The notes under the pieces: generated by a model | What the model saw: the letters and a program-made list of their open reading frames with translations, nothing else | Told to the model about the DNA's origin: nothing | Database searches by the model: none | Position numbers and translations under genes: made by a program | Part shown: piece by piece, positions 1 to 47,825 of the stretch | How positions within the stretch are numbered: position 1 is the stretch's first letter | Layout of the letters: each line of letters begins with the position of its first letter | From: Candidatus Tumulicola sp. | GTDB lineage: Bacteria; Vulcanimicrobiota; Vulcanimicrobiia; Vulcanimicrobiales; Vulcanimicrobiaceae | DNA: 64,000 bases | Assembly (NCBI GenBank): GCA_036490475.1 | Contig: DASXDT010000004.1 | Span: forward strand, 23,797-87,796 | Direction of reading: 5' to 3'

Positions 1-385
1 GAATCTTATTTTGATATTGTAGCGTCTGTTGAAGAACCGCGCCGTATTTCTTGTAGACCAGAATCTGACCGAGGTTCAGAGCAGTATAGAGATACAGGTG
101 GCCGGACGCGCCCGCAGCGATCCCAGGATAGTTGTCTACGCCCGGGCCACTTCCGACGTCTCCAAATTTGCGATCCAACGTCGCGCCGGCGGCGGAATAA
201 GCGCTCACCCAACCTGCCTTCTTACCAACCTGCCGATTGAGAACATAGACTGTAGAAGGTGTTGACCCAGCATGTCGCGCGCGAGACAACGCGGGTTTTG
301 CTTGCTGGGCCGGCGACGCTCCGCCGTTGCAACCTGTTAGGACGAGAGCCGCCAAACTCGCGGCTACAAGGGCGCTCCGATACAT
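1..385 (-). CDS. putative lipoprotein, N-terminal part only (gene runs off the window start)
   Basis: ATG at 385-383 opens MYRSALVAASLAALVLTGC (lipobox LTGC). I translated the frame by hand and it stays open to base 2. It is absent from the ORF track because no stop lies inside the window. GHLYLYTALNLGQILVY resembles the strand motifs of the 8870-12769 paralogs. Confidence 0.5.
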   Translation of the reverse strand, partial: MYRSALVAASLAALVLTGCNGGASPAQQAKPALSRARHAGSTPSTVYVLNRQVGKKAGWVSAYSAAGATLDRKFGDVGSGPGVDNYPGIAAGASGHLYLYTALNLGQILVYKKYGAVLQQTLQYQNKI

Positions 386-679
386 CGATAACCTTTCGAA
401 CAATACATTAGTTTGAGAACGACTCCCGGTAGATCCAAGTACAACGCGGCTAACGATCACTCGCCAATGTTGGAGCCTAGAGCTACCAACATAGATGTTT
501 GGCTCCGGCCAAATATCCGTTCGAACCAGCCGACGGCGCCCCCTGCGGTTAGCGTTTCACCTGAGTTTTAATGGAACCAACATGGTTTGGGGGCAAGCAC
601 GGTTCAACAACATGCGCCTCCAGGGGAGGCCAGCAGTAGGTCCCGAACGGCTAGTTCCGATACTTGTGGGGTATGCCAA

Positions 680-1117
680 ATGACGTTGTCGGCTTTGCAA
701 ATGCTCTTTCTGTCAGGGGTGTTGGCCGTTGGCCCTTCTCCCGCACCGACCACTGCGCCCATGAGTTCGCCCGCGCCAGATGCGCTAACGCAGTTCGTTC
801 CGAGTGACGCGCAGTTCAAAGCCGATATCGATCGCGAGATCAACGTTCTGCCGACGCCTCCACCCGACGTTCTAGCCAAGGCGCAGTACGTGTACGAGGA
901 AAAGCTCACCCAGTTAAAGCGCTGGTGGCTCCTTCCGCTTTTGCCCGAAGAACTCTACGTGCAAATGTACGTAACATCCGTGCGTCACGTGGGGCCGTTA
1001 GTGGTCTGCCGCGGCTGGGCGCTTCGCGTCCCGATGGTGGGAGCGCCGATCGTAGAAACGGATGTGTCGTACATATGTATGGGGCGGTTAAAGCCGATAG
1101 CAAAGTCTACCCAGTGA
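680..1117 (+). CDS. hypothetical secreted protein
   Basis: Internal ATG of ORF 587..1117. MTLSALQMLFLSGVLAVGPSPAP looks like a signal peptide. No family recognised. Confidence 0.35.
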   Translation: MTLSALQMLFLSGVLAVGPSPAPTTAPMSSPAPDALTQFVPSDAQFKADIDREINVLPTPPPDVLAKAQYVYEEKLTQLKRWWLLPLLPEELYVQMYVTSVRHVGPLVVCRGWALRVPMVGAPIVETDVSYICMGRLKPIAKSTQ

Positions 1118-1152
1118 TGAGCGCTTGCGAGCCGCGAAAGGTTACGCCCTAG

Positions 1153-1497
1153 TCATCCATGGTCTAACGGGGCGATTGCGCTATCACACAAGCCTTTCGT
1201 TAGTCGAAGGTGCACGACGGTGGTAAAGCCGTCGGCAGCCTCGATCGCACTGGACATTGCACAAGCCGAACTGGTCTTCGCGAGAACGCCATAATAGCCG
1301 CCGGGGATACCCGAAAAATTGAACGAGCCATCCTTTGCGGTCACAGTCTTGCCGACGTCTGGACCGCCGATAACTGGCTCGACCGAAACGGTTACTCCGG
1401 ATACCGGCTTACCGTTGTCGCCCACGACGGTGCCGGTTATTTCCGGATTCGGCGACAAAGCTGCGACTGCTAGCAATAGGCACGTGAGAATATTCAT
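1153..1497 (-). CDS. secreted carboxypeptidase-regulatory-like (CarboxypepD_reg) domain protein
   Basis: Signal peptide MNILTCLLLAVAAL, then ITGTVVGDNGKPVSGVTVSV...TVTAKDGSFNFSGIPGGYYGV, the typical pattern of this Ig-like domain. Confidence 0.6.
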   Translation of the reverse strand: MNILTCLLLAVAALSPNPEITGTVVGDNGKPVSGVTVSVEPVIGGPDVGKTVTAKDGSFNFSGIPGGYYGVLAKTSSACAMSSAIEAADGFTTVVHLRLTKGLCDSAIAPLDHG

Positions 1498-1565
1498 TCT
1501 GCAATTCCCCTCCGTCGTACAGCGATTGGGGTTTTAGCCGAGTGACATCCGACCCTTCTACAGGC

Positions 1566-2294
1566 TTAAAGCAGCTCGCGCAAGGCTTGCGCTACGACGT
1601 CCGGAGCCTCGATCATCGCAGCACTCCAAACATCGGGAAGGACGGTAGCCTGCATGCGCGCTGCCGTTTTTTGATCTAATGGAGACGTTCCCAAGAGGAC
1701 GGTCCGAAGCTGCACTTTAGCATCGACTGCCGGATCGATCGGTTTGGTTATCTCGAGAGCAACTTCAGCGGTTCTTTCGATCGCATGCGCGGTACGCCGA
1801 TCGGCCACGCGCTCCGCGGCTTCTCCGAGGATCGCATCGCTGATGTGGGCCTCCCCGATCAGCAGCGACATCTGCTTCTTCAAGAATTGCCGATCGTTCA
1901 AAAGGCGAGCTTGTTTGGAGCGAGCGAGAGCGGTCAGGACTTGCCTTCCGATATTCGAGTTTATGACCGATCGCACGACTTGGAGAGCAGGCGTAGTATG
2001 TCGAACGAGCATTGGAGAAAGCAACAGGACGGGGAGCGAGCGCGACATTTGGGCGATAGCTTCGATTGCCGGCTTCGCTGCGGCGTTGTGAGCGACTACG
2101 CAATGGGCGTCGCGCGCAGCTTCAAGAATAGCCTGCCGGCAGGCGATAGAGATGTCTGCGGAGTCCGCAAAGTCTAGCGTATCTACTTCAATAAAGCTGA
2201 GGTCCGGTGCCGCTTGACGCAAGGGAAGCCACGTGGATGGCCCACCCAGGTAAGGAGCAGCACCAGTTATTACTACAACGCGCTTTTCGTGCAT
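1566..2294 (-). CDS. hypothetical protein (possibly alpha/beta-fold)
   Basis: 242-aa ORF starting ATG with GAGGA 8 nt upstream. Composition is protein-like. No motif recognised with certainty. Confidence 0.55.
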   Translation of the reverse strand: MHEKRVVVITGAAPYLGGPSTWLPLRQAAPDLSFIEVDTLDFADSADISIACRQAILEAARDAHCVVAHNAAAKPAIEAIAQMSRSLPVLLLSPMLVRHTTPALQVVRSVINSNIGRQVLTALARSKQARLLNDRQFLKKQMSLLIGEAHISDAILGEAAERVADRRTAHAIERTAEVALEITKPIDPAVDAKVQLRTVLLGTSPLDQKTAARMQATVLPDVWSAAMIEAPDVVAQALRELL

Positions 2295-2500
2295 TCACAT
2301 CCTCAGCAAAATCTCGGCAAGCGTCCAGGCGATTACCAGTATTACATGATTAAACAGTAGGTACGCACCCCAATGCAAGGAGACCGCCCCGAATGGACTA
2401 CCAAAGACCAACAGTCTGTTCGACCCGATAGCTACTAGAGGTTAGCGACGAGTTCCCGCGCTGGGAACACCTTTCTTCTACCCGCACTAGCCGGCCTATA

Positions 2501-2506
2501 AGGAGG
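2501..2506 (+). promoter_or_regulatory. Shine-Dalgarno AGGAGG serving the downstream membrane-protein gene
   Basis: Perfect AGGAGG immediately after the in-frame stop TAA 2499-2501. The next in-frame codons 10-16 nt away are ATT-ATC-ATT. No ATG/GTG/TTG in that frame before 2568. Confidence 0.55.
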
Positions 2507-2516
2507 CTTCTTTCCT

Positions 2517-3854
2517 ATTATCATTCGAACGAGTGGCACAGCGCTAACCTCGGCTCGGACTTTCGTTTTGGTCGCGTCGTGCGTCTTTTTCGCAACGTAC
2601 GTCGCTATCGATTTGAATAAGTTATGCGCCTTGCGGGTTGGTTCGAACACAGGCGAATATCTGCAAACCGCCGTCAATTTCATTCGCTACGGATCTACCT
2701 ATAACTACGTAGATTGGAACTCTACGTTGGCGATGCATGACCAATGGATGACGCTGGCGATCGTTCCTTTCGTCTTGATCTGGCCTCACCCGGAATCCGT
2801 CATCGTGCTCCAGGTCCTAGCCTTGGCCGCGACCGCCCCGTTGCTGTTCGTCCTCGTTCGGAGGTGGGGCGGAAATGCCGAGACTGCAGCCATCGTTGCG
2901 ATAGTCTATCTGCTACAGCCGTCCGTTCAAGGCTTCGCTAATGCAGAATTCGTTCCGCTTGACTTCGTTCCGTTGCTGAGCGTTGGGCTTGCGATTGCCG
3001 TGACCGCTCGATCGCTCGTTTGGAGCTTGCTCCTCGTGCAACTGCTGTGTGGAACCAAAGAAGACGTGGGATTGTTCGTGTGCTGGTTTGGACTCGTTTA
3101 TGCGGCCTTCGGCCATTTGCGATTCGGACTAAGCGTCGCGGCTTTGTCAGGCGCAAATTTGGCTGCGTACTACGCCCTCGCGCATGGCTTTATTGGCGGG
3201 ACGGTGCACCCGACGTATTCGGCTGTAGACGTAAACTGGCCGCAACAGTTAGCGTTTCTAAGCGAGATTTCGGCACCCTTTGCGTTCGCCGCTCTAGCCT
3301 TGGGATGGCGCGTTTTGCTTGCTTTTCCGTTACTAGCGGAACTCTTTTTTGCGCATTGGAATTTTCCGTTGTACCAGGCCGGAAGTTACTACACTGTCAT
3401 GATTGTGACCGCGGTGGTGCTAGCGTCGGCGTATGTCCTAGCGAGGAATGCGGGATGGGCACGACTGTCGATAGCTACCGCCCTTATTATGGCTATGTTT
3501 TTTAACACGACCGTGCTGCACTTCGGCAGGCATTGGTATTCGTGCGATCCGTTGTACAGTCGCGCCCTCGCCTGGAGCTTTACGCAACAGGGAATATATT
3601 TTCCCTGTGAGGATCAAGGCGCTTGGACCGTAGCAGCCGCTGATACGCAGGCACGACTCATAGGGTGCGGACATCATCGTATGCTCCGGCACGCAAGAGC
3701 GGCTTGGGGGAACGAAGCGTTGTTCAGCGATTCACCGTGGACACAAAGCCCCGGCACGCTCCTCGGCCCTCCGCAGCAATGGAGCCTTAACAAAGCCTGC
3801 AAATGGTTCGCTCACGCCGGCTCACGATGCCGCTGTCGGGCACCCCACGTGTAA
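2517..3854 (+). CDS. polytopic membrane protein (DUF2079/GT-C-like by appearance), probable ATT/ATC start
   Basis: ORF track gives 2568..3854 (TTG), with many hydrophobic helices. TTG 2568 falls inside the helix FVLVASCVFFATYVAI. The SD at 2501-2506 argues for initiation at 2517-2523. Family assignment is tentative. Confidence 0.65.
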   Translation: MIIRTSGTALTSARTFVLVASCVFFATYVAIDLNKLCALRVGSNTGEYLQTAVNFIRYGSTYNYVDWNSTLAMHDQWMTLAIVPFVLIWPHPESVIVLQVLALAATAPLLFVLVRRWGGNAETAAIVAIVYLLQPSVQGFANAEFVPLDFVPLLSVGLAIAVTARSLVWSLLLVQLLCGTKEDVGLFVCWFGLVYAAFGHLRFGLSVAALSGANLAAYYALAHGFIGGTVHPTYSAVDVNWPQQLAFLSEISAPFAFAALALGWRVLLAFPLLAELFFAHWNFPLYQAGSYYTVMIVTAVVLASAYVLARNAGWARLSIATALIMAMFFNTTVLHFGRHWYSCDPLYSRALAWSFTQQGIYFPCEDQGAWTVAAADTQARLIGCGHHRMLRHARAAWGNEALFSDSPWTQSPGTLLGPPQQWSLNKACKWFAHAGSRCRCRAPHV

Positions 3855-3897
3855 CAGCAAATGTTGAAGATGGAGCGGAACCGTTTACGGCTGCCTC

Positions 3898-4257
3898 TCA
3901 CGCATTCCATTTTGCCATAGACGTTTGGAAGGCCGGCGCCTTGAATGAGTCGTTACACGCGGAGTCTTCTATGGCAGCCGCGGAGCCCTCACGTATAAAC
4001 GCAATTATTGCGCGGTCGCCACACGAGAACCACAAAGAACCTAGCCGCTGGCGCCAGTAAGGAGTGCGCGTAATCGTCAACAACCAATAGACCTGCTCGT
4101 TTCTGAGTGTGGGAACTCCCGCTTTGCCGACGTCAAGCACGCGGTACACGGGGCGATAACCGCTTTGGGAAGATTGCGCGCGCCCCGAAACCACCGTGCT
4201 TGCAAACGATGCGGCCAACGCCGCCGTAAGAAGTGAGTAGCGCGGTATTTTCGACAC
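3898..4257 (-). CDS. hypothetical secreted protein
   Basis: GTG inside ORF 3898..4365, just downstream of the stop of 4262..4555. VSKIPRYSLLTAALAASFASTVVSGRAQS is signal-peptide-like. Confidence 0.35.
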   Translation of the reverse strand: MSKIPRYSLLTAALAASFASTVVSGRAQSSQSGYRPVYRVLDVGKAGVPTLRNEQVYWLLTITRTPYWRQRLGSLWFSCGDRAIIAFIREGSAAAIEDSACNDSFKAPAFQTSMAKWNA

Positions 4258-4261
4258 AATC

Positions 4262-4555
4262 TTAGACAATCGCTTCGCCGCTTGCTTCGCTTGATCGCTC
4301 TCGCAATGCGACAAGTGCCGTCGCGGCCACGTCGCTTTCTTTGATCGGCGCGGGCAGTTTTCCACCGCCGATGGTTCCGGCGTAAATTTGGTTCAACAAA
4401 GACGCTAGCTCAGCCGCTGAAGCTCCCGTATTAAGCAAATCGCATATCTCCGGAGCGTAGTCGTCGTACTCGTCTGATGCACTCGACAAGCCCCGCACTT
4501 GAAGAGGATCCCAAACTTCCCATAAGACGCCGGCAACGGCTGCTTCTGTAACCAT
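4262..4555 (-). CDS. hypothetical acidic protein
   Basis: 97-aa ORF with protein-like composition. No family recognised. Confidence 0.45.
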   Translation of the reverse strand: MVTEAAVAGVLWEVWDPLQVRGLSSASDEYDDYAPEICDLLNTGASAAELASLLNQIYAGTIGGGKLPAPIKESDVAATALVALRERSSEASGEAIV

Positions 4556-4611
4556 TCTACCCTTTTGAGCTTGGTGCGTGTCGTTAGGCTTCTTGCGAGA
4601 CGGGAATAAGC

Positions 4612-5628
4612 GTGCGAATGAACGCCTTTGAAATCTTCCCTAAGAAAACCTTTGGACTCGGCGGCGTGCCTTTCGGCAATGAGTTCGCATACGTCACCGA
4701 TGAGATCGCGTATTCCACGATCGAAGCCGCGTGGGAGGCCGGGGTGCGGTACTACGATACTTCCCCGTGGTACGGGCTCGGGCTCGCGGAGCGGCGTCTG
4801 GGTACCTTCTTACACAAGCAAAAGCGCCGCGACTACGTGTTATCGTCGAAGGTTGGGAAATTGCTTACGGCGTCGCGTGATAACGACGCGAAGAAATACT
4901 ATCCGTTTACCCCTTCGCCGAACAATCTTCGTTACGACTATACCGGCGACGGCGTTAAGCGCTCGATCGAAGACAGCCTGCAGCGGTTAGGAGTCGATGC
5001 ACTGGACGTCGTTTTCGTCCACGATCTGTCGCCGGACAATCCGTGGTTGCCGGGGCCGTGGGAGGAGCACTTCGAGATCGCTCGCAAGGGCGCATTTCCG
5101 GCTCTGAGCCGGATGCGAGATGAGGGCGTGATCAAGGGCTGGGGTCTGGGCGTCAACTCGCCCGAGCCGATTCTGAAGCTCATGGAGGTGGCCGACGCCA
5201 ACGTCTGCCTCCTGGCGCGACAATATTCGATGATCGATCATGAGAACGCGCTGCATCAGGTCTTTCCAAAAGCCCGTGAGCGAGGGATGGGCTTCGTGGT
5301 CGGTTCGTCGCTCAATGCGGGCTTTATTAGCGGCAGCGCGCGCTTTAACTATGGAGAGGAGAACTACAAGATTCCGGCTGCGGCGATCCAGAAGCGCGAT
5401 CGTCTGCGCACTGTCGCGGACCGTTACGGTGTCGACCTTCGAACGGCGTCGCTGCAGTTTTCGCTTGCACCGGATGTCGCGGCTGCGCTCATCGTCGGAT
5501 GCGCGAATGCGGGGCAGGCTTTGGCGAACTACACGTCAGTCCAGACAAAAGTTCCGGCGGAGTTCTGGTCGGACCTTCGATCGGAGGGATTGATCGAAAG
5601 CGACGCCGCGGTTCCGCCAGAGAAGTGA
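4612..5628 (+). CDS. aldo/keto reductase family oxidoreductase
   Basis: FGLGGVPFGNEF...AGVRYYDTSPWYGLGLAERRLG...LGVDALDVVFVHD...VVGSSLNAG, typical AKR (aldose/fucose dehydrogenase-like) motifs. Confidence 0.9.
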   Translation: MRMNAFEIFPKKTFGLGGVPFGNEFAYVTDEIAYSTIEAAWEAGVRYYDTSPWYGLGLAERRLGTFLHKQKRRDYVLSSKVGKLLTASRDNDAKKYYPFTPSPNNLRYDYTGDGVKRSIEDSLQRLGVDALDVVFVHDLSPDNPWLPGPWEEHFEIARKGAFPALSRMRDEGVIKGWGLGVNSPEPILKLMEVADANVCLLARQYSMIDHENALHQVFPKARERGMGFVVGSSLNAGFISGSARFNYGEENYKIPAAAIQKRDRLRTVADRYGVDLRTASLQFSLAPDVAAALIVGCANAGQALANYTSVQTKVPAEFWSDLRSEGLIESDAAVPPEK

Positions 5629-5892
5629 TCAGTGCGAAAAGACGGTCGTTCACACGTTTACCGTTGCGAATGGCGTGTTTCCGCAAGGTCCGATGCTCCA
5701 TACCGGCGGTACCTTCTACGGAGTAACCGCCGGCAACGTCGAGCAACAGTTCAAGACGAAATACGGGACGATCTTCTCGATGACTCGGTAGATGGAGGTT
5801 AGTTCTAAACTCATGGTATTCGCGCCGTGTTTTGCTCGATGGCATTTCGGAGTTACGTCCAGCTCCTTAGCCTCTTGTTTCGGACTGTCTCT

Positions 5893-6558
5893 TCACGTCG
5901 CCGAGCCCTCTACGATTCGCACTACGGTAGGCAGCGGGTCGGCAGATAGTAGCGCCGCCCACAGATTCGCTTTTTGCCAAGTCAACTGTCCCCCAACGAT
6001 TTGTTCCGACCCAGTTTCTCCCACCAGGTCATGGATTGTCGGTATGAACTTCACATCACCGTCGAGCATGATTGCCACATTTCGACCGATGTATCGTCCG
6101 ATGAAACGATTGTATGCCTTCGGGTCGGCAAACTTGATAACGAGCGCAGGATAGGGCATGTACGGTAGTACGAAGGCATTTGAAAGCGCGCGATCGTTGA
6201 CGGATGGGTACGTCGGACCGTGCGGCATTATCTTAAATGCGATTTTTCCGGTTTGTGTGAAGATCAACGTATTATAGTTGCGCGCCGTTTGGAACGTGAT
6301 GCAGATTCCATCGAACTTCGTTGCATAGGCGGTAGCCTTCATGCCGCCGGCTTTCATCCGTTTTCGTTCGATAAGCAGAGTTTGCTCAAGCTGATTCGCA
6401 GATGGGGCGGCCCCATCTGCCGCTCGAACGCTCAATAGGATCGAGCACGGCACAGCTTGGCCCGTTTCGGCTGCACGAGGCGGAGTCGAAACGGCCAGCG
6501 CCGCGATCAACGTTATGGCAGCGGCGAAGACGAACCTGACAATAGCAATCATGTTCAT
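5893..6558 (-). CDS. hypothetical secreted protein
   Basis: Signal peptide MNMIAIVRFVFAAAITLIAALAV. The segment GRNVAIMLDGDVKFIPTIHDLVGETGSEQIVGGQLTWQKANLWAALL is reminiscent of the SecD/PpiD periplasmic head motif (weak). Confidence 0.6.
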   Translation of the reverse strand: MNMIAIVRFVFAAAITLIAALAVSTPPRAAETGQAVPCSILLSVRAADGAAPSANQLEQTLLIERKRMKAGGMKATAYATKFDGICITFQTARNYNTLIFTQTGKIAFKIMPHGPTYPSVNDRALSNAFVLPYMPYPALVIKFADPKAYNRFIGRYIGRNVAIMLDGDVKFIPTIHDLVGETGSEQIVGGQLTWQKANLWAALLSADPLPTVVRIVEGSAT

Positions 6559-7238
6559 TTAGGTTTCGTCGTCGAGATTGGGGATGGAGACGGAGAAACG
6601 AATAGTGGAACGAATCCACGTTCGCCCGTCGAGGGATAATGGTACGGGAAGCCGATGCAGCGTTGTGCTAGCTGTACGTCGACGTCGAGCCTCATCCCGT
6701 GTTCGGGGATGTCGACCGGGATCCGGCACTCCAAATCGTCTCCGTACGATAACTCCAAAAGCGACTTTCCTGGAAAAGCGAATTCGACGTAATAGGCGGA
6801 CCCGTCGATCTCGACCGGAAGCTCGAAGTCCTTTACAACTAACTTTCCGCGGGTGAAGCCCGCGAAGGGCAGCGTCCCGTAAATCGCAGCGTGTACATCG
6901 TGATGCCCGGACCCCAGGGGCGATACCTGGACACCGACATCGCGGTCGTGACCCGGTAGAACGGTAATCAACGTATCACCCCAGCACTTCCCGTCAACGT
7001 CGAGCCCGACGTCGTACCGGCCCGGATAAACCATTGCGTGGCCGGCGTAGAAGTATGGGCCGAGGCGATTGAAAACGAGATCTGTGGTCGGGTAACCGTC
7101 CTGCGAGACCATATCGGCCTTTCGAAGTACCGTCGCGCTATTGCAACGCGAAACGACCGTGACATAAACTGTCTGCTGCCCGGGATCTGCGCTGGCAACT
7201 GTGGGCTGCATTAGCGCGACGGCGACAACGAGCGCCAT
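6555..7238 (-). CDS. hypothetical secreted protein
   Basis: Internal ATG of ORF 6555..7313 gives MALVVAVALMQPTVASA as signal peptide. 4-nt overlap with the next gene. Confidence 0.6.
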   Translation of the reverse strand: MALVVAVALMQPTVASADPGQQTVYVTVVSRCNSATVLRKADMVSQDGYPTTDLVFNRLGPYFYAGHAMVYPGRYDVGLDVDGKCWGDTLITVLPGHDRDVGVQVSPLGSGHHDVHAAIYGTLPFAGFTRGKLVVKDFELPVEIDGSAYYVEFAFPGKSLLELSYGDDLECRIPVDIPEHGMRLDVDVQLAQRCIGFPYHYPSTGERGFVPLFVSPSPSPISTTKPK

Positions 7239-7523
7239 GGCGGCGGTACTCAACGGCTGGCAACTTGGTTTCGAAGCACAACAACAGCCCCCACCGACGA
7301 GCGACTGCAGCAACAGCTAGATGCCACAACCGCTGATTCGTGGAATCGCGTAGCAATCTTCCTCGAGCCAAGAGAGCCACAAGCGCGAACAACCAAATCG
7401 TTCGTAGATCCGAGGAATTAATCGAGAGCGACGCCCCCGGTTCCGCCGGAAACGTGATCAGTGCGACGAGGCCGGAGCCGAATGCGAGCAGCACTGCGCC
7501 TAAGGAAACCGTTTGAACGTTCA
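7138..7523 (-). CDS. possible small membrane protein (extent uncertain)
   Basis: ATG 7523 is preceded by GAGGT with a 6-nt spacer. The first ~55 aa form two hydrophobic helices. The C-terminal half is Arg-rich and overlaps the next gene, so the true end is doubtful. Confidence 0.3.
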
Positions 7524-7696
7524 TGTTGAGACCTCGTCTGGGCCGTTGGGATCGATGAAATGCGTGATTTGCGGCTCGCCTTCGAGCAGTTTGATGACGC
7601 GTTCTTGCAGCCCGCACCGTACATCCAGCTGCCGATGTTAGAAACCACGGTGGCGGACGCACGCAGGAAGCTCAATTAACATCCATAAGCGATGAG

Positions 7697-8653
7697 GTGA
7701 TGCCCCTAACAATTTGTCGCGCTCTCGCTACGACTGCGCTACTGGTATCGTCGATGACGGCGTCCCTCGGCGCGGCCGCTCCGGATCGAAGTATCCACGT
7801 TACGATTGGAAGCGCCAGCATCGATATCGGCGCGATACAGCGCCTGCTTCGTGGAATTTTCCAGGCCGCTGGAGCCGATACGAGCGGGGGAATGATGGCC
7901 GCACTGGAGGGCAAGCCGCTGCTTCTCCGTGCAAAGATCGTCGATACCGTCGAGACGCCGACCGCGAAGATGCCCGTGGGGTTTCAGTATTTCTATTACG
8001 CGGGTCGCGACCCGAAAACGGAGCGCGAGATCGTTTGGCAGTCGCCGGCGACAAAACATTTCTGTGTTGGAGCGCCCGGATGCCCGCCCAATGATGACTT
8101 TGTTGCCGCTTACGCGCTAGCCGCCATGGACGCTTACTACGTCGACGGCGAGCCCTGGCGGACGCTCTACAAGTCGGCGCCCGATGCCGCGTCGCGCCTC
8201 GCGCTCGGTAAAGCGATCGCAACAGCGATTAACGAGGTCGCCGCTCAAACGCAGGCCCGCGGTGTCGCGGACGTCGCGTGGATCCGCGAACGCATTACGA
8301 TCGGTACGCGTCGCAACGACGCCTACGACGCTTTGCGCTCCTTCGGGCTAGTCGCGTACAACCACGCGTTCAACCCTGGGGTTCCGATAGAATCGCCGCG
8401 GTGGAAGGGGTGCGATTACACCGATAGGACCGCGGCTGCGTGGCCCTACCACGGCGAACCGTTGCCGAAACGATCGGGTCAATGCGCGACCATGGGTTCG
8501 GATGATCCGGGACCGTTTCCATCGGCATACGTGGATGTTTCGGGCGGTTTCACGATCGCATGTGGTAGCGAAGCGTCGGTCGCACTCAACTTCGACACTT
8601 CCGATAGGATCAGTAACGTTAATATCGGCAAATTCGAATGGACGTGCATATAA
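7697..8653 (+). CDS. hypothetical secreted protein
   Basis: 318-aa ORF with signal peptide MMPLTICRALATTALLVSSMTASLGAAAP. No family recognised. Confidence 0.6.
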   Translation: MMPLTICRALATTALLVSSMTASLGAAAPDRSIHVTIGSASIDIGAIQRLLRGIFQAAGADTSGGMMAALEGKPLLLRAKIVDTVETPTAKMPVGFQYFYYAGRDPKTEREIVWQSPATKHFCVGAPGCPPNDDFVAAYALAAMDAYYVDGEPWRTLYKSAPDAASRLALGKAIATAINEVAAQTQARGVADVAWIRERITIGTRRNDAYDALRSFGLVAYNHAFNPGVPIESPRWKGCDYTDRTAAAWPYHGEPLPKRSGQCATMGSDDPGPFPSAYVDVSGGFTIACGSEASVALNFDTSDRISNVNIGKFEWTCI

Positions 8654-8808
8654 TGGACGCTACGCCGTACACCGACTATCGCTGCGATCGCTGCGGCCAA
8701 CCCTGTCGAATCCCCGATACGGTAGAGTTGGCGCGAAAGAGTCGTTGCAGCGTGCCGGAGTGTGGCGGGAGCCTACGTGAAATCGAATTGGAGATGGATG
8801 ACAGGTAA
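8653..8808 (+). CDS. possible 51-aa zinc-ribbon protein
   Basis: ATG overlaps the upstream stop (TAATG). MDATPYTDYRCDRCGQPCRIPDTVELARKSRCSVPECGGSLREIELEMDDR has CxxC...CxxxxC. Too short for the ORF track. Confidence 0.35.
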   Translation: MDATPYTDYRCDRCGQPCRIPDTVELARKSRCSVPECGGSLREIELEMDDR

Positions 8809-8869
8809 GCCGCAGTTGCAACGTTACGACTAGCCACGCAGGACCGTGTCCGCCGGCGTGCCGGGCCGG

Positions 8870-10755: not shown

Positions 10756-10773
10756 TTTTGTAAGCTCCTCACA

Positions 10774-11742: not shown

Positions 11743-11851
11743 GCGTTCGGCTCCTCGTCCGGATTTATCGCGTCGCTTGCGATGATTTCGTGGCGCGCAG
11801 TTTACCTCTCCTGTGCCGAAGTGGTAGGTTTAATGCGGGAGGTTCTATACA

Positions 11852-12769: not shown

Positions 12770-12971
12770 TCCAGTACGACCGTCTGAGCAACAGCAGGAT
12801 GCCTAGTTGAGTAATTGAGTGCGCATAACGCGCGGTGGCGCTGCTCATTAAACAGCTCCATCAATGAGCTCTGTTGCGGCCAATGGGTCTCGATCGTGAC
12901 ATCGACTTATATTTCGGCGGCGAGCTGCGCGTTAAGTTTGGCACGCGTCACACCGTGGTAAGGAAAGACAT

Positions 12972-17043: not shown

Positions 17044-17778
17044 CTAGTAGGCCAAGAACTGCACCGGATCGTCGCCGTTTACGGCCGCGCGGAGACTGTG
17101 GGTAAACTGATCCGCCGTGATCTGGTAGCACTCGCACGCGGCCGACTCCAGCCCTTTACGATCGCGAATTTCCACATGCCCTCGGATATATTTGATGAAG
17201 CCCGCCTGTTGTAGCGAAGCTGCGGCAATGCTTACCCCCGGCCGATGCACGCCAAGCATAATGGCCAGAAACTCCTGCGTGAGGTCGAACTGATCTCCGC
17301 CGACGCGATCGTGCGACATGAGGAGCCAGCGGGCACAACGTTCGTCGACCGTATGCAAGCGATTGCAAGCGATCGATTGGCCCATAAAATTAAACAGCGC
17401 TTCGGTGTACCTGCGGACGATGCGCTGGAACGTTCTGGCCGTCTTGAGGTGCCGCAAGAACCGGTCGACGGGCATGCGTAACGACTCGCCTGGAATTTGA
17501 CAGATCATTTGGCTCGGTGCGCGATCGCCTCCAAGAATCAACTGCGCGCCGGAGAGCCCTTCCAGCCCGAACGTGCCAATCTCAACGGCCGCCCCGCTTT
17601 GCATGACCGTGAGTACAGAAAGCACCGCCCCTTGCGGAAAGTACACGTGCGACAGAGGCTCGTCGACCGGATATAAAATGTCGCGGACGCGCAATGTTAT
17701 GCGCTCGAGGTCTGGCCGGATTGCGGCCTGCTCTCGCTCCGGTAAAGCCGCGAGAACCCGATTCTTGAAGGGTTGGAT
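17044..17778 (-). CDS. Crp/Fnr family transcriptional regulator, probable ATC start
   Basis: cNMP-like barrel plus HTH LTQEFLAIMLGVHRPGVSIAAASLQQAGFIKYIRGHVEI. The family-typical N-terminus NRVLAALPEREQAAIRPDLERITL is encoded upstream of track start TTG 17694. The only candidate start after stop TGA is ATC 17778-17776, preceded by AGGTG. Confidence 0.8.
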   Translation of the reverse strand: MQPFKNRVLAALPEREQAAIRPDLERITLRVRDILYPVDEPLSHVYFPQGAVLSVLTVMQSGAAVEIGTFGLEGLSGAQLILGGDRAPSQMICQIPGESLRMPVDRFLRHLKTARTFQRIVRRYTEALFNFMGQSIACNRLHTVDERCARWLLMSHDRVGGDQFDLTQEFLAIMLGVHRPGVSIAAASLQQAGFIKYIRGHVEIRDRKGLESAACECYQITADQFTHSLRAAVNGDDPVQFLAY

Positions 17779-17905
17779 TGCGAAACACCTACATGCTGAC
17801 TGTCGTCAAGCAAGTAAGCGCTGTGTGCTTGCCGGAGAACCAATTAAGCATAGCACGGCTCAGTCCGCTTATGTACGAATTACTACAAAGAAAAATGTTT
17901 GCCGC

Positions 17906-29491: not shown

Positions 29492-29563
29492 TGACTCGGG
29501 GGTGATTTGAACACCCGACCAAGGGCTTATGAGTCCCCTGCTCTACCGCTGAGCTACCGAGCC
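29492..29563 (-). tRNA. tRNA with CAT anticodon (elongator Met or lysidine-modified Ile2)
   Basis: GGCTCGGTAGCTCAGCGGTAGAGCAGGGGACTCATAAGCCCTTGGTCGGGTGTTCAAATCACCCCCGAGTCA. Loop CTCATAA, no encoded CCA. It lacks the C1:A72 mismatch, so it is not an initiator. Confidence 0.8.
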
Positions 29564-29776: not shown

Positions 29777-29866
29777 CGGAGAGAGAGGGATTCGAACCCT
29801 CGGTACGACTTTACATCGTACAACGGTTTAGCAAACCGCCGCCTTCAGCCGCTCGGCCATCTCTCC
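29777..29866 (-). tRNA. tRNA-Ser (anticodon GCT)
   Basis: GGAGAGATGGCCGAGCGGCTGAAGGCGGCGGTTTGCTAAACCGTTG...CCGAGGGTTCGAATCCCTCTCTCTCCG. Long variable arm, no encoded CCA. Confidence 0.9.
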
Positions 29867-29914: not shown

Positions 29915-30469
29915 TCACGGGTTCGGCGGCGCTGTCGGCCGGACCAGCGGCGGTTCGGGAACGAACTCGGCGCGGACCGTCGCGGGCGGCGGGGGACGCC
30001 GGCTCCTTATGAATACCGCATCGACGCCAAGAGCTCGTCCGGTTGGCAACACCAAGCTGATTGCGGAGAGTACGAGCATCGCCAGGTCCAATCCCTGAAG
30101 CGTCGTCAGCGACAAGATCCCGCCCTTTGATGCTATGAAGTTCAGCGCCAAGAAAACGCCTACGAGCCCCCCCAAGCGGGTCGCGGCGCCAAGAATGAGC
30201 GACGCCCCTACTAGGACCTCTGCCAAGCGTTCGAGTTGAGCGAAGAGGCCGATATTCGGAACGACCATCGTCGTGAGAAACGTGTGATATCCGCCCGTCG
30301 AGGCAGCGACGGCTTTGTCGAGGAAGCCGGACATCATTCCGGTTGGCGGCATGAACGCAGCGGCGTCGGTAAATTTTGGAACTCCGTGAGCGATCCACAT
30401 GCAGCCGGTGGCGACACGCGCGATAGCCAGCCAAAACGCGTACGTCCGGGACGAAGGAAGAATGGTCAT
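29915..30469 (-). CDS. DoxX-family membrane protein
   Basis: FWLAIARVATGCMWIAHGVPKF...ERLAEVLVGASLILGAATRLGGLVGVFLALNF, typical DoxX helices. Pro-rich tail. Confidence 0.8.
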   Translation of the reverse strand: MTILPSSRTYAFWLAIARVATGCMWIAHGVPKFTDAAAFMPPTGMMSGFLDKAVAASTGGYHTFLTTMVVPNIGLFAQLERLAEVLVGASLILGAATRLGGLVGVFLALNFIASKGGILSLTTLQGLDLAMLVLSAISLVLPTGRALGVDAVFIRSRRPPPPATVRAEFVPEPPLVRPTAPPNP

Positions 30470-31602
30470 GCGACGACCGCCTTTCGTAAGGAGACCAAGC
30501 GTGCAATCATCGACGCAGCTTCACCTGCAGCGTTCGGCCGCGCCAGTTTGCGAGCTGCCAGAGCAATGTCATCCCGCAAACGGCTATCGGTCAGCACGCG
30601 TTCCAACGTTTCCGCGAGATCGTTTAAACGCCGAACGCGCAGACCGGCGCCTGCTTCAGTGATGACGCGAGCGTTCCGCTCTTCTTGCCCAGGTAACGGC
30701 TTATAGAGCACGAGCGGCACCTGCGCGACCAACGCTTCGGCGACGCTTAACCCTCCGGGTTTCGAAACGAACGCATCGGCCGCATGCATATAATCGTACA
30801 CGTTATCAACGAACGTTAGCACCCGAACTGGGAAACGCACTTTCTGTGCCGTGGCCATCACCTGGCGTTCGCTACGCGCGTTTCTACCGGCGATTACAAC
30901 GAGCGTGAGCGGAAGATCGAGAGACTGCAACGACCGCATCATTCGCTCTAACGGACCGATTCCGAGACCGCCGCCCATCATCAGCACGACGAAACCGTCG
31001 CGCGGCAAGTTCAAACGTTCGCGCAATCCGTTGCGCCGATCGGGAGAGGGCGCGAACTCGGGCTTGACCGGAATTCCGCTGGCGGTGACGCGGTTCGGGT
31101 CGATGCCGCGGGCGATCATGGTCGAGCGAACCTCGTCGCTCGCGACCGCATATGCATCGATATCGGCATGCAGCCAGAAACCATGAACCGCATAGTCGGT
31201 AACGATTCCGACGACCGGTGGCGCGGCGGAATACATGCGTTTGTATTCTGCCATGGCGCCGCACGGAAATGCGTGCGTGCAGACGACCGCATCGGGTTGC
31301 CAGCGCTGTATCAGGCGATGCAGGTTTTCTGCCGTAAATTGATGCGCCCACGTTCGGAACGGACCGACTTCGGTCGCTCGTTCCGCGCGATTGTAGATGT
31401 ACCGATACATCTGCGGGATGGTTTTGACCATTTGGATGTAGCCGTCGGATACGACACGCGATACGACGAGCGCCGCATATTCATATGAGTCGACAATTTC
31501 GGTCTGGACGGACGGATCGACGGCACGTAATCCTTCGCACACGGCTCCGGCCGCGGAAAGATGACCGACTCCGACACTCGCGGACAGAAAAAGAATGCGG
31601 AT
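30466..31602 (-). CDS. MGDG-synthase-like (GT28) diacylglycerol glycosyltransferase, probable ATC (or CTG) start
   Basis: Body matches UgtP/MGDG synthase (HAFPCGAMAEYK, VLMMGGGLGIGP, SKPGGLSVAEAL). The N-terminal G-loop RILFLSASVGVGH is encoded upstream of track start GTG 31542. ATC 31602-31600 overlaps the upstream stop (TGATC). Confidence 0.8.
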   Translation of the reverse strand: MRILFLSASVGVGHLSAAGAVCEGLRAVDPSVQTEIVDSYEYAALVVSRVVSDGYIQMVKTIPQMYRYIYNRAERATEVGPFRTWAHQFTAENLHRLIQRWQPDAVVCTHAFPCGAMAEYKRMYSAAPPVVGIVTDYAVHGFWLHADIDAYAVASDEVRSTMIARGIDPNRVTASGIPVKPEFAPSPDRRNGLRERLNLPRDGFVVLMMGGGLGIGPLERMMRSLQSLDLPLTLVVIAGRNARSERQVMATAQKVRFPVRVLTFVDNVYDYMHAADAFVSKPGGLSVAEALVAQVPLVLYKPLPGQEERNARVITEAGAGLRVRRLNDLAETLERVLTDSRLRDDIALAARKLARPNAAGEAASMIARLVSLRKAVVA

Positions 31603-31910
31603 CAGCTGCCGCCGTTCTCGTCGTTCGACTCATCGACAATCTCGAGGAAATCTTCGAGGATTTCTTGGGCGAGGTCATCGTCTTCGATCAGATTGCCGTA
31701 CAGATCGGTAACGATCGCCTGACCCTCTTCTTCGGGATTTGATTCGTCGGTCGCTTCGGGCATCAGCACTGCGTACGAAGTTCCGTCGTCGGGGTCTTCC
31801 AGAATTCCGACGACCGTAAACTGGTGTTCCGCACCGTCGGTCGTTTTTATATGCAGTATATCGCTGAGTTCGAGCGCTTCTTTGGGCGTTTCGCCGTTAT
31901 CCGTCGTCAC
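31602..31910 (-). CDS. DUF1292-family acidic protein
   Basis: LHIKTTDGAEHQFTVVGILEDPDDGTSYAVLMP...EILEDFLEIV is typical DUF1292, and it sits next to ruvX/mltG as in Firmicutes. Confidence 0.8.
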   Translation of the reverse strand: MTTDNGETPKEALELSDILHIKTTDGAEHQFTVVGILEDPDDGTSYAVLMPEATDESNPEEEGQAIVTDLYGNLIEDDDLAQEILEDFLEIVDESNDENGGS

Positions 31911-33345: not shown

Positions 33346-34056
33346 CTACTGCTGTGCCAACTCGGCGAGCTGCGTCCCCGCTTTCGGACGGCGGCCGAGA
33401 TGGTGCGTTATCAACTCGTCGATGGCTCGCGCAACGGGAATACGAGCGTTCATCGTAGCGCCGGCGCCGCGATCGGCACCGACCGCGCGGAAGTTATCGC
33501 GGTCTTCAAGCGTAATGGAAGGCAGGTCGCGCCAGCGCTCCCGGCATCGATCGTCGATGAATCCGCCGGCCTGCGCGTCGACATAGACGACGTCGGCGCC
33601 GAGCGGTGCGCCACAGCGCACGCAATCATCGCACGGAGGCCCGAGCCCGAGCATTTCCAGCAGCCGTAAGGAAAATCGCGGAATGACCGATTGCGGAGTG
33701 TCGGAATGGGCTATCGCCTGCAGCGTACCGACGAGCAGCGAATAGATGTCGGGCACGGCCAGGTCGGGTTCGCAGAACGCATCGATGAGCTCTACGGCTA
33801 ACGACGCAACGGCAAATCGCTCGGGTCGAACCAAATCGATCCACGGAGCACTGACGATTTCGGCGGCGACGATCACGTCGAGCGATCGTCCGCGGTGCAT
33901 CGACAAATCGCACTCGTTGCCGAACTCGAGACGGCCGGCCAGATGGCTTCCCGAACGGCGGACGCCTTTTGCGACGGCGTCCAATTTGCCGCGCTCGGTC
34001 GTCAACAGCGTTAGAATGCGATCGGCTTCGCCGAGTTGCCGGCCGCGTAAGACGAT
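33346..34056 (-). CDS. recO: DNA repair protein RecO, probable ATC start
   Basis: GEADRILTLLTTERGKLDAVAKGVRR, C-terminal Zn motif CDDCVRCG...DDRC. The OB-fold start (G)IVLRGRQLGEADR lies upstream of track start TTG 34005. The only candidate is ATC 34056-34054, 10 nt after the upstream stop. Confidence 0.8.
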   Translation of the reverse strand: MVLRGRQLGEADRILTLLTTERGKLDAVAKGVRRSGSHLAGRLEFGNECDLSMHRGRSLDVIVAAEIVSAPWIDLVRPERFAVASLAVELIDAFCEPDLAVPDIYSLLVGTLQAIAHSDTPQSVIPRFSLRLLEMLGLGPPCDDCVRCGAPLGADVVYVDAQAGGFIDDRCRERWRDLPSITLEDRDNFRAVGADRGAGATMNARIPVARAIDELITHHLGRRPKAGTQLAELAQQ

Positions 34057-34066
34057 CCCGCGCGTC

Positions 34067-35401
34067 TTATAGGCGCGAGGTTGCGTCGTCGTCTTCCTCT
34101 TCTTCGCTGGGATCGGGAGTGCCGTTGGAAAAAATGCGCACGGCTAAGATCCGGCGGCCGCGCATGCGTTCGACGCGCAGGCGTGTAGCGGCGTCTCCAA
34201 CGATTTCTTCGCCTTCTGAAGGCAGCCGGCCGAAGCGTCCGACCGTGTACCCGCCGATCGTCTCGAAGTCTTCGGTTGGAATGTTTGTATGCAAACGCGC
34301 GTTCACGTCTTCGATATTAGTGCCGGCATCTACGATCGCTTCGCCTTCGGATACCACGTGAATGGCCTCTTGTTCGTCCTCGTCGTGTTCGTCGCGAATC
34401 TCGCCGACGATCTCTTCGAGCAAGTCTTCCATCGTCACGAGTCCGGCCGTTCCGCCATATTCGTCGACGACGATCGCCATCGAGAACTTGTCGCGCTGCA
34501 TCTCGCGCAACAACTCGGCGATCTTCTTGCTCTCGGGCACGTGGACCGCAACCCGCATCAGCGTGCGTAACGGCGTGTTCGCCAACGAGCCGTTCGCCAA
34601 GGCGACCAACAGTTCGCGGTCGTGTACGACGCCGACGATGTCGTCTTTGGATTCCTGATAAACCGGCAGCTTGGAGTAGCCTTCGGCGATGACGACGTCG
34701 AGCACGCGACGAGCGGGATCGGTCACCGACACGGCGACCATCTCCGGACGCGGCTTCATCACTTCCCGAACGATCGTATCGCCGAACGCCATGACCGAAT
34801 GAATCAGTTCGCGCTCTTCTTCTTCGATCACGCGTTGTTCGGCGCCGACGTTGACCAACGTGCGGATATCTTCTTCGGTTACGTACATCTTGTTGCCGTG
34901 CTTGATGCCGAACGGCCGCAACAGCAACTCGGTCGCGAACTGAAATGTTTGCGCGATCGGGTTCAGCACGAGAGCGGTTCCGCGAATCGCCCCGCCGAGA
35001 ATCAGCACCCATCGCTCGTTGTCGGCGGTCGCAACCATCTTGGGTATAATTTCGCCGAACAACAGCATGACGGCCGTCATGAAGACGGTCGAGACTACCG
35101 CCGCGGCCGGCAGCGAGAGTTCGATGGCCATGTAGGTTGCCAGCGAATCGGCAGCCAGCAGAACGATCGTGTTGCCGACCAGAATCGATGTCAGGAATCG
35201 ATTCTTGTCGTCGACCAGTTGGAGCACGCGAGCGGACCCACGGAGCCGGCGCTCGGCCATGGTGCGCGCGCGCAGGCGAGAGACCGAGATCAGGGCCGCT
35301 TCCGAGGCTGCGAAAAAGGCCGCAAGCGCGACCAGCAGCAGCAAGATGGCGAGGTGGGCCCAGAAGACCTCGGGACTACTTCGATACGAGTCGGTGTTCA
35401 A
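34067..35401 (-). CDS. CNNM/HlyC-CorC family transporter-like protein (DUF21 + CBS pair + CorC_HlyC)
   Basis: TTG 35401 just after the upstream stop. AAFFAASEAALISVSR...NRFLTSILVGNT (DUF21), CBS region, C-terminal TIGGYTVGRFGRLPSEGEEI. Confidence 0.85.
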   Translation of the reverse strand: MNTDSYRSSPEVFWAHLAILLLLVALAAFFAASEAALISVSRLRARTMAERRLRGSARVLQLVDDKNRFLTSILVGNTIVLLAADSLATYMAIELSLPAAAVVSTVFMTAVMLLFGEIIPKMVATADNERWVLILGGAIRGTALVLNPIAQTFQFATELLLRPFGIKHGNKMYVTEEDIRTLVNVGAEQRVIEEEERELIHSVMAFGDTIVREVMKPRPEMVAVSVTDPARRVLDVVIAEGYSKLPVYQESKDDIVGVVHDRELLVALANGSLANTPLRTLMRVAVHVPESKKIAELLREMQRDKFSMAIVVDEYGGTAGLVTMEDLLEEIVGEIRDEHDEDEQEAIHVVSEGEAIVDAGTNIEDVNARLHTNIPTEDFETIGGYTVGRFGRLPSEGEEIVGDAATRLRVERMRGRRILAVRIFSNGTPDPSEEEEDDDATSRL

Positions 35402-46617: not shown

Positions 46618-47487
46618 TTACGCTTCGGGCAGCACAATTATGACGAACCGTTCGAGGCGGCCCAGATCGCACCCGACCGCGACGCTCGCCTTCGAAAAAG
46701 CCGCCTCGCAGAGCGCGCGTAACGCCCCAATCTGGTGCGGAGCCGCTTCGCACAGCGCCAGGCCGCCCGCCACGAGCAGACGCGGTAGTTGTGGCAGCAG
46801 CCGGGCATACGCGCGCAACCCGTCCGGGCCGCCATCCAAGGCTATCCGCGGTTCGAACGCGAGCGGGTCGGGCGCGGCCGGGATATCGGCGGTTGCGACG
46901 TACGGCAGGTTCGCGATGATGGCGTCGTATTGCAGATCGGCAACCGGACCAGCCAAATCGCCGAGATAAAAATGGCAACGGGAGTCTACGCCGATGGTGC
47001 GCGCGTTGGCTCGCGCAACGGCGAGCGCTCCGGCCGAGCAATCGGTCGCGTCGATCGTGGCGGACGGCAGTTCGGCCGCGAGCGTACACGCCAGGGCTCC
47101 CGACCCGGTGCCGACATCCAGAATGCGCAACGGCTGCGAGCCCTGGCACTTTGCGAACTGGAGAGCATAATCGACCAGCGTCTCGGTTTCGGGTCGGGGA
47201 ACGAGCACGGTTTCGTTGACCGCAAACTCCCGGCCGTAGAAATACGCGCTTCCAAGCAGATACGCAATCGGAACGCCCGCCGCACGCCGAGCGCACAGGT
47301 CGCCAAACCGCTGCGCCTGGGGCGCCAAGACGAGTGCCTCGCCGTGTGCGATCAGCCACGCTCGACTCCGACCGAGCACGTAGGCCAATAGGATTTGGGC
47401 ATCCGCATGGCCGGAATCGCCGAGCGCTCCGAGGCGCCCGGCGCTCTCGACGAGCAGCCGGCCGACGGAGCTTACCGGTTCTTGGAT
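46618..47487 (-). CDS. prmC: release-factor glutamine N5-methyltransferase, start probably upstream of the first canonical codon
   Basis: ILDVGTGSGALA, IIANLPYV. The N-terminal helical region ...GRLLVESAGRLGALGDSGHADAQILL is encoded upstream of track start TTG 47388. Candidates are ATC 47487, ATT 47499 or CTG. Confidence 0.8.
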   Translation of the reverse strand: MQEPVSSVGRLLVESAGRLGALGDSGHADAQILLAYVLGRSRAWLIAHGEALVLAPQAQRFGDLCARRAAGVPIAYLLGSAYFYGREFAVNETVLVPRPETETLVDYALQFAKCQGSQPLRILDVGTGSGALACTLAAELPSATIDATDCSAGALAVARANARTIGVDSRCHFYLGDLAGPVADLQYDAIIANLPYVATADIPAAPDPLAFEPRIALDGGPDGLRAYARLLPQLPRLLVAGGLALCEAAPHQIGALRALCEAAFSKASVAVGCDLGRLERFVIIVLPEA

Positions 47488-47777
47488 GCTTTTTCTAATC
47501 CGGTTCGCAACTCTTCCAGGTTCATCACGGGCACGAGCTCGACGCTAGCGTTCAATTCGAGAAATAACGGTTCGACGATCGACGGTATATCCGACGGGTC
47601 GTTCAAATCGAAGATAAACGTTGCAGATCGCTTCCCATCGTGTGCGGAGAAGTACGTCGCCTCCGGTTTCAAGCGGGCGATCGTAGCCTCAAACGTTTTG
47701 CCGAGCGAACCATCCTTGACCGCCGCATTTGACTGTTCCACGGGAAAAACGGCCCGTAACATCGCGCGCATACTCAA
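47472..47777 (-). CDS. small conserved hypothetical protein
   Basis: 101-aa ORF between prfA and prmC, protein-like (AAVKDGSLGKTFEATIARLKPEATYF...EPLFLELNASVELVPVM). Family not assigned. Confidence 0.6.
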   Translation of the reverse strand: MSMRAMLRAVFPVEQSNAAVKDGSLGKTFEATIARLKPEATYFSAHDGKRSATFIFDLNDPSDIPSIVEPLFLELNASVELVPVMNLEELRTGLEKASKNR

Positions 47778-47825
47778 GTCTCCTTTTACCGCAAGCTTAT
47801 CCCGCGACCAAGCAGCCGCCTGCAG

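Follow-up and report, generated by a model that had tools for sequence, protein, structure and literature searches.

We analyzed a stretch of 64,000 nucleotides (nt) from a genome of Candidatus Tumulicola sp. (contig DASXDT010000004.1; hereafter, the window), in which the gene for a DUF2079 membrane protein almost certainly starts at an isoleucine codon, namely, ATT at position 2523 or 2517, as judged from the alignment of orthologous DNA. We favor ATT 2523, since it is in frame in all sequences compared and matches an ATG in one orthologue, with ATT 2517 as the alternative; in either case, the start would be an Ile codon. The comparisons provide good support for the gene as a new addition to the few bacterial genes that initiate at AUU. 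A first-pass annotation, made from the letters alone, had counted this gene among five in the window that seem to initiate at Ile codons, and had taken the five as a sign of relaxed or lineage-specific start-codon usage. Two of these cases, the DUF2079 gene and a GT28 glycosyltransferase gene, are firm at the level of sequence; another two, recO and prmC, lack a canonical start and have other candidate codons, and the fifth, a Crp/Fnr gene, carries a frameshift. Taken together, it is probable that the DUF2079 gene has an AUU start, likely at position 2523, and that the other four cases each differ from it and from one another.

The genome is metagenome-assembled and third-party-annotated (TPA) and stems from an uncultured soil bacterium of the Eremiobacterota. 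The G+C content of the window is 56 to 64%, and a crude codon-usage gene map gave approximately 70 to 75 genes, fewer than the roughly 80 assumed previously. Its NCBI protein records, retrieved by exact-sequence protein look-ups, are HEY1680585.1 to HEY1680634.1. Loci used for comparison are designated by L and a number, and the coordinates of the features discussed are provided in Table 1.

Start codon of the DUF2079 gene

The reading frame of the DUF2079 gene is closed upstream by TAA 2499, which is followed by AGGAGG (2501 to 2506) and, 10 bases past this Shine-Dalgarno (SD) sequence, by in-frame ATT 2517, ATC 2520, and ATT 2523; the first canonical start codon (ATG, GTG, or TTG) in the frame is TTG 2568. 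All these elements were present as first described. The TAA (2499 to 2501) and the AGGAGG merge into the 8-mer TAAGGAGG, which is fully complementary to the 3' tail of the 16S rRNA. This 8-mer occurs once in the window, which is unremarkable by itself, given that 0.47 occurrences are expected by chance. Among the SD sequences of the window, the extended UAAGGAGG is the strongest, no other gene having as long a match, and it precedes a gene that lacks a canonical start. SD use in the window is weak, since 29 of 58 genes have no match of at least 4 nt even at the best candidate start, matches of at least 6 nt are found in only 5 of 58, and AGGAGG is rarer than expected (7 observed versus 13.7 expected). 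From 2507 to 2532, none of the three frames contains ATG, GTG, or TTG, and the first to follow is the out-of-frame GTG 2533; this bears out the claim that no canonical start lies within SD range. The spacer is predicted to be unstructured (single-sequence z = +1), and we detected no RNA structure bridging the SD sequence and ATT 2523 (single-sequence z-score of +1; alignment fold without notable covariation). A scan for sigma-70 promoters upstream of the gene gave no match.

To the window and an identical locus (L001), four orthologous loci (L002 to L005) with 75 to 88% protein identity were added, and their DNA was compared. In the column of position 2523, L002 has ATG whereas the window and the other three loci (L003, L004, and L005) have ATT, and the codon is in frame in five of five sequences. 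From this column onward, the five sequences are collinear over 17 codons, with neither indels nor stops. For the arginine at position 12, the five sequences use CGG, AGA, CGC, CGG, and CGG, hence synonymous replacements, and position 2 is occupied by arginine codons (CGA or AGA) except for a histidine in L005. These synonymous changes, of the kind that the first-pass annotation had left to be looked for, indicate that the sequence preceding TTG 2568 is coding. The TTG 2568 column reads CTA, TTC, and TAC in L002, L003, and L005, so that it is not a conserved start, and the orthologue alignments begin upstream of it. An SD sequence is kept at the same position in L002 to L005 as GGAGG, GAGG, or GGGGA.

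The choice between the two ATT codons rests on the same alignment. ATT 2517 is kept in five of five sequences, 9 to 10 nt past the SD sequence, at which distance initiation would be workable. Its equivalent in L003 is out of frame and opens a four-codon open reading frame (ORF), the TAG of which overlaps the second ATT, and this speaks against 2517. In addition, the length of the segment between the two ATT codons differs by 0, 3, and 4 nt among orthologues, as in non-coding sequence.

The family assignment is based on a match to PF09852 (79.7 bits versus a cut-off of 28.2), and NCBI names the homologues DUF2079. Among 57 homologues of the protein, the full-length members carry a basic tail of 10 to 30 residues ahead of the first transmembrane helix (TM1). 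A start at TTG 2568 would leave 13 to 14 hydrophobic residues ahead of an Asp, which is too few for the TM1 of the family.

We considered whether the public annotation is right, with either TTG 2568 or TTG 2613 as the start of the gene and with the upstream SD sequence and ATT as parts of another element, such as a leader or regulatory element. The former codon is picked by Prodigal-type callers and the latter by NCBI, the tail encoded by 2523 to 2568 evolves fast, and the match to the Pfam model begins only within TM1. TTG 2568, however, is missing in three of five orthologues, is not preceded by an SD sequence (the preceding 20 nt are CCTCGGCTCGGACTTTCGTT), and would result in a TM1 that is short with respect to all full-length homologues; moreover, the synonymous conservation of the two arginines and the tail free of stops and frameshifts in all five sequences argue against it. 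We consequently regard this reading as very unlikely. Prodigal-type calls are shortened likewise in L003 to L005, and in L002 the caller begins at the ATG.

Several observations weigh against the start at ATT 2523. The spacing between the SD sequence and ATT 2523 is 16 nt in the window and 16 to 20 nt in the orthologues, which is long by Escherichia coli standards. Substitutions in codons 2 to 15 are distributed over the three codon positions as 73/54/66, without clear periodicity, indicating that the tail is weakly constrained. The comparison orthologues are related to one another, here and in the wider comparisons described below, so that the ATT counts exceed the number of independent events. 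Furthermore, some of the comparison genomes are nanopore-sequenced metagenome-assembled genomes (MAGs) with indels at other sites (recO of L006, L050, and L014). We nevertheless retain ATT 2523 as the best-supported start.

Thirty nucleotides upstream of the SD sequence, at 2452 to 2468 (plus strand), there is a hairpin resembling a terminator (GTTCCCGCGCTGGGAAC), with a T/C-rich tract behind it. At the matching position, L004 has an apparent hairpin of a different sequence (CCCTA-ACGC-TAGGG). This hairpin may be a leader element.

Glycosyltransferase junction and the three remaining genes

For the other four genes, the in-frame ATC codons at 17778, 31602, 34056, and 47487 (minus strand) were present as first described, and CTG 31605 and CTG 47457 are in frame as well. 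The claim that homology extends upstream of the first canonical start was borne out by profile matches for the glycosyltransferase, RecO, and PrmC and by orthologue alignments for the DUF2079 and Crp genes. For the glycosyltransferase and recO genes, we compared 18 loci of Eremiobacterota that share this gene order, retrieved by a genome-collection scan seeded with the neighboring MltG.

The GT28 gene forms a TGATC junction with the upstream DUF1292 gene, in which ATC (31602 to 31600) shares its A with the TGA stop (31604 to 31602). Profile NF010135 (positions 6 to 367) covers residues 11 to 377, and position 1 of MGDG_synth falls on residue 23. The first canonical codon, GTG 31542, corresponds to residue 30, and a protein started there would lack the N-terminal strand as well as the Gly-rich loop. 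The start column contains ATC in 3 genomes (window, L006, and L020), ATT in 8 (L008, L009, L010, L011, L013, L014, L017, and L050), and ATG in 3 (L012, L015, and L016). With 11 genomes of the ATT or ATC type versus 3, the column upholds the proposed start at ATC 31602. In 10 of 10 intact genomes with ATT or ATC (ATY) in which the junction was read, this codon overlaps the stop by one base as TGATC, TGATT, or TAATT (window, L006, L008 to L011, L013, L014, L017, and L020; the frameshifted L050 was left out). The junction of L016 is a canonical TAATG, and the non-overlapping orthologues start with ATG (L012 and L015) or GTG (L018). There is no SD sequence of at least 4 nt ahead of either 31602 or 31605. 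The ATT-to-ATC ratio in the column is 8:3, versus a share of ATT of 28% among the ATY codons of the window genes (P = 0.002 in a naive binomial test that ignores relatedness); this bias fits the role of a start codon and not that of an ordinary Ile codon. Taken together, the alignment makes a strong case for the glycosyltransferase gene as the second firm Ile-codon start.

GenBank places the start of this gene one codon upstream, at CTG 31605. The codon preceding ATY consists of any base and the first two bases of the overlapping stop, which with a TAA stop gives CTA, GTA, or ATA. Since this codon is dictated by the stop, CTG 31605 is probably incidental and ATC 31602 the better call. From the conserved one-base overlap and the absence of an SD sequence, we infer termination-reinitiation as the simplest mechanism, in which ribosomes that end the DUF1292 gene would restart at the overlapping UGAUC. 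In L014 (approximately 11000 to 11250, equivalent to window positions 31600 to 31910), DUF1292 and the glycosyltransferase form a single frame without an intervening stop (...LDFAEEEQKVIRILFLS...), which is either a natural fusion or a nanopore indel. A similar fusion of the two genes, via a 1-nt difference, was seen in L006.

The case of the Crp/Fnr gene is of a different nature. Its homologues have 230 to 250 amino acids and begin 7 to 8 residues ahead of a conserved NR(I/V)L motif. The orthologue in L136/L137 (91% amino acid identity) reads GTG TTC GTC ATT where the window reads GTGTTTCGCAATC, so that a single extra T after the ancestral GTG (GTGTTTCGC versus GTGTTCGTC) has put this GTG out of frame. 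The extra T is also present in an independent Logan assembly contig (L141) and is thus no assembler glitch. The gene has a +1 frameshift behind its GTG, which by this alignment explains what had been read as an Ile start at 17778; ATC 17778 would at best be a rescue start. GenBank starts the gene at TTG 17694, which results in a shortened protein. As a separate observation, some 45 nt upstream of the GTG are 100% identical to an orthologue (17783 to 17830, minus strand), compared to approximately 81% in its coding region. An imperfect inverted repeat in this stretch, TTGAC-N4-GTCAG, is similar to an FNR/CRP-type box and could be an autoregulatory site.

For recO, the profile TIGR00613 matches from residue 26 of the open frame, and the first canonical codon, TTG 34005, is residue 47. 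The profile and a conserved PRAYKTRG motif reach upstream of ATC 34056, a start at which would cut YKTRG; in addition, this column is GTC or CTC in most orthologues, and we thus abandoned ATC 34056 as the start. The column some seven codons before the Tyr contains CTG in L009 to L017 and L021, TTG in L008, ATG in L019, and ACG (34092) in the window, L006, and L007. A further in-frame ATG, present in L142 and L008, corresponds to ACG 34125 in the window, and the change is synonymous (AAT/AAC) in the overlapping CNNM gene. From these columns, recO lacks a canonical start and has several near-cognate candidates. Around the stop of the CNNM-type gene, 20 nt (CGCGCCTATAAGACGCGCGG; 34057 to 34078, minus strand) are almost invariant, even at third codon positions, among Eremiobacterota orthologues with 57 to 98% protein identity. 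A hairpin of 5 G-C base pairs that has the TAA in its loop can form there, and the recO start region is located at this site.

In prmC, the PrmC_N profile matches from residue 37, with TTG 47388 being residue 53. Homology, judged from PrmC_N and from where distant homologues have their Met1 (MSSVGETL...), extends at least as far as codon 47475. The proposed ATC 47487 did not hold up, as its column reads ATC, ATC, GTC, and AGC in the window and the three close orthologues L138, L139, and L140. All four keep ATT 47499 and CTG 47457. At codon 47475, which is GTA or ATA, there is an overlap with the stop codon of a small inserted ORF (GTAA/ATAG; TAA 47474 to 47472 in the window). The start of prmC is thus non-canonical, and an Ile codon is plausible, though not that at 47487. 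The inserted ORF encodes approximately 100 amino acids without a Pfam match and lies between prfA and prmC (47472 to 47825, minus strand) in the Tumulicola clade, including L138 to L140. It is not present in L086, the sole close relative in the metagenome scan, where prfA overlaps prmC directly and prmC starts with TTG. The loss of the canonical start of prmC coincides with the insertion of this ORF.

NCBI annotates recO from ATC 34113 in this genome (HEY1680619.1) and from the equivalent of 34056 in the genome of L007, which lacks the 34113 ATC; for prmC, it uses ATT 47499 here (HEY1680634.1) and the equivalent of CTG 47457 in the genome of L138. Since different codons are picked in close relatives, these starts are set by rule and not by evidence.

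Genes without a start may also result from sequencing or assembly errors, or may be decaying and no longer give a full-length protein. The extra T in the Crp gene is a case of this type, the source is a MAG, and a possible ATG of recO in L142 and L008 reads ACG in the window. However, the Logan assembly of run SRR11833918, which is independent, matches window positions 1 to 13083 at 100% identity and without gaps. Furthermore, the ATT/ATC starts of the DUF2079 and glycosyltransferase genes recur in many independent assemblies, both Illumina and nanopore, and dead genes would not be expected to have the intact, conserved ORFs seen for these two. Errors or decay are hence a highly improbable explanation for the set, and we maintain Ile-codon starts for the DUF2079 and glycosyltransferase genes.

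Table 1. Coordinates of the start regions and genes analyzed in the window
Feature	Position	Strand	Remarks
Extended SD sequence TAAGGAGG	2499..2506	+	Begins with the in-frame stop TAA
Pyrimidine-rich spacer CTTCTTTCCT plus ATT 2517 and ATC 2520	2507..2522	+	ATT 2517 is the alternative start
ATT, best-supported start codon of the DUF2079 gene	2523..2525	+	Aligned ATT/ATG column, in frame in 5/5
DUF2079 membrane protein, re-called coding sequence	2523..3854	+	443 aa plus stop; 445 aa from 2517
TTG, first canonical start, inside TM1	2568..2570	+	Prodigal-type callers (Logan, JGI), 428 aa
TTG chosen by GenBank	2613..2615	+	HEY1680585.1, 413 aa (exact-sequence look-up)
Crp/Fnr start region	17776..17788	-	GTG 17788-17786, T-run 17785-17783, in-frame ATC 17778-17776
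MGDG-synthase-like GT28 glycosyltransferase, coding sequence	30466..31602	-	Start ATC 31602-31600
CTG, GenBank start of the glycosyltransferase gene	31603..31605	-	HEY1680615.1, 379 aa
recO, open frame without canonical start before TTG 34005	33346..34143	-	ACG 34125, ATC 34113, ACG 34092, ATC 34056
prmC, open frame without canonical start before TTG 47388	46618..47544	-	ATT 47499, ATC 47487, GTA 47475, CTG 47457

Frequency of non-canonical starts in the window and among relatives

Considering that 4 of approximately 70 window genes (those of DUF2079 and the glycosyltransferase, recO, and prmC) have no canonical start when frameshifts are excluded, we assessed whether start selection is relaxed throughout the lineage, such that AUU, AUC, and CUG starts would be frequent in the Tumulicola group through altered proofreading by initiation factor 3 (IF3) or the initiator tRNA. 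In 79 model genomes, 99.95% of the annotated starts are ATG, GTG, or TTG, and at a model-genome rate of 0.05 to 0.5%, 4 of 70 genes correspond to P < 0.0005. Furthermore, ATY in the glycosyltransferase column and CTG in the recO column persist in orthologues down to approximately 50 to 60% identity, and NCBI annotates three non-canonical starts within the 64 kb. On the other hand, among some 25 syntenic families across up to 18 genomes, only the glycosyltransferase and recO families lack an ATG/GTG/TTG start column, all the others being canonical. The non-canonical starts are specific to genes and contexts (a strong SD sequence or a stop-start overlap), for which the ordinary machinery could suffice, one of the five cases is a frameshift, and the data come from a single window that was chosen for looking odd. 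We hence consider a lineage-wide relaxation unlikely.

We hold with similar reservation a more specific version, in which AUU, AUC, and CUG starts in Tumulicola/Baltobacterales would be one to two orders of magnitude more frequent than in model bacteria, chiefly at UAAUU, UGAUU, and UGAUC overlaps that escape IF3 proofreading, and in which the preference for ATT over ATC would mark a selected setting of the ratio between coupled proteins; we judge it doubtful. Five Ile starts and a lineage-specific rule go beyond the evidence, which hints at frequent non-canonical starts in the lineage.

A number of further candidates were rejected. Some 10 additional genes had been flagged by a coding signal upstream of their canonical start; in six of them, Pfam domains start at or after the canonical starts, and four had no match. 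Apparent ybeY starts at ATT (L009) and CTG (L014) were attributed to a contig edge and to a likely 1-nt insertion in a nanopore MAG, respectively. The tRNA-CAU at 29492 to 29563 (minus strand) is of the elongator type (G1-C72 and C11-G24) and was discarded as an initiator. It has an A31-G39 mismatch at the anticodon-stem base beside three G-C pairs as well as a TTCAAAT T-loop, and could be a tRNA-Met or a lysidine-containing tRNA-Ile2. The genes for IF3 and the initiator tRNA are absent from the window. At the gathering threshold, Rfam matches in the window were restricted to tRNAs and one antisense-tRNA artefact; the latter, a Plastid-psbl-rps4 match at 29777 to 29831 (plus strand; 68.7 bits versus a gathering threshold of 68) opposite a tRNA-Ser, is almost certainly spurious. 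A literature search on start-codon usage in Eremiobacterota retrieved nothing relevant.

Relation to known systems and consequences for annotation

The textbook examples of AUU-initiated genes in E. coli are infC, which encodes IF3, and pcnB. Like them, the DUF2079 gene has a conserved AUU without a canonical alternative, TAA 2499 closing the frame, and a low, IF3-sensitive expression is predicted for it. It differs from them in that it belongs to an unrelated family, in that a perfect extended SD sequence of 8 nt accompanies its AUU, and in that there is no known autoregulatory logic. Furthermore, its AUU is confined to a shallow clade (75 to 100% identity), whereas distant orthologues have canonical starts. 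In E. coli, AUU and AUC are inefficient start codons that give an N-terminal Met and are discriminated against by IF3 (PMC2268962, PMC10666635). In the DUF2079 mRNA, the SD sequence would recruit 30S subunits de novo, and the initiator fMet-tRNA would read the near-cognate AUU. The protein would then begin with Met, followed by a short cytoplasmic tail of positive charge and a complete TM1. The combination of a weak start codon and a strong SD sequence would be expected to give a low output, sensitive to IF3 as for infC.

A start-codon switch has also been described for rsbW of Listeria monocytogenes, where ATG is replaced by ATA or ATT, the switch tunes expression, and the measured order is ATG > ATA > ATT (PMC13068326). 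The DUF2079 gene is similar in that ATG and ATT alternate at one start position among close relatives. However, ATT is its majority state across species-level divergence, whereas the Listeria alleles are recent and found at the strain level.

The glycosyltransferase junction has its closest counterpart in gene pairs coupled by termination-reinitiation at -1 and -4 overlaps (TAATG, TGATG, or ATGA junctions), with which it shares the one-base overlap, the lack of an SD sequence of its own, and the conservation throughout the phylum (PMC10666635). It differs from them in its restart codon, which is ATT or ATC (TAATT, TGATT, or TGATC) and not ATG or GTG. In the study of these pairs, ATT was considered only as a rare explanation for -5 overlaps, and its efficiency in de novo initiation is given as approximately 0.3% of that of ATG (PMC10666635). 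Reinitiation by unrecycled ribosomes has been reported at non-canonical codons (PMC2268962), which would account for a tolerance of ATY at the glycosyltransferase junction. The junction described here is a natural, phylum-wide instance of ATT/ATC at a one-base stop/start overlap and bears on whether reinitiating ribosomes proofread the start codon, as 30S subunits with IF3 would, or do not, as would be the case for 70S ribosomes.

These starts are of consequence for sequence databases. It had been claimed that standard gene callers miss such starts, and this is so for Prodigal-type callers (JGI and Logan), but not in general for NCBI, which uses CTG, ATC, and ATT for three of the five genes. 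The NCBI annotation of the contig thus already contains non-canonical starts for the glycosyltransferase gene (CTG), recO (ATC), and prmC (ATT); it departs from our calls in that the DUF2079 and Crp proteins are shortened and the glycosyltransferase codon is not the one supported by orthologues. Every public record of this DUF2079 gene that we examined cuts 15 to 30 residues, including part of TM1. Prodigal-based catalogues also shorten the glycosyltransferase, with the loss of its Gly-rich nucleotide-binding loop, as well as RecO and PrmC. If the frequency seen in the window holds genome-wide, callers that accept only ATG, GTG, and TTG would mis-start a few per cent of the genes of the phylum.

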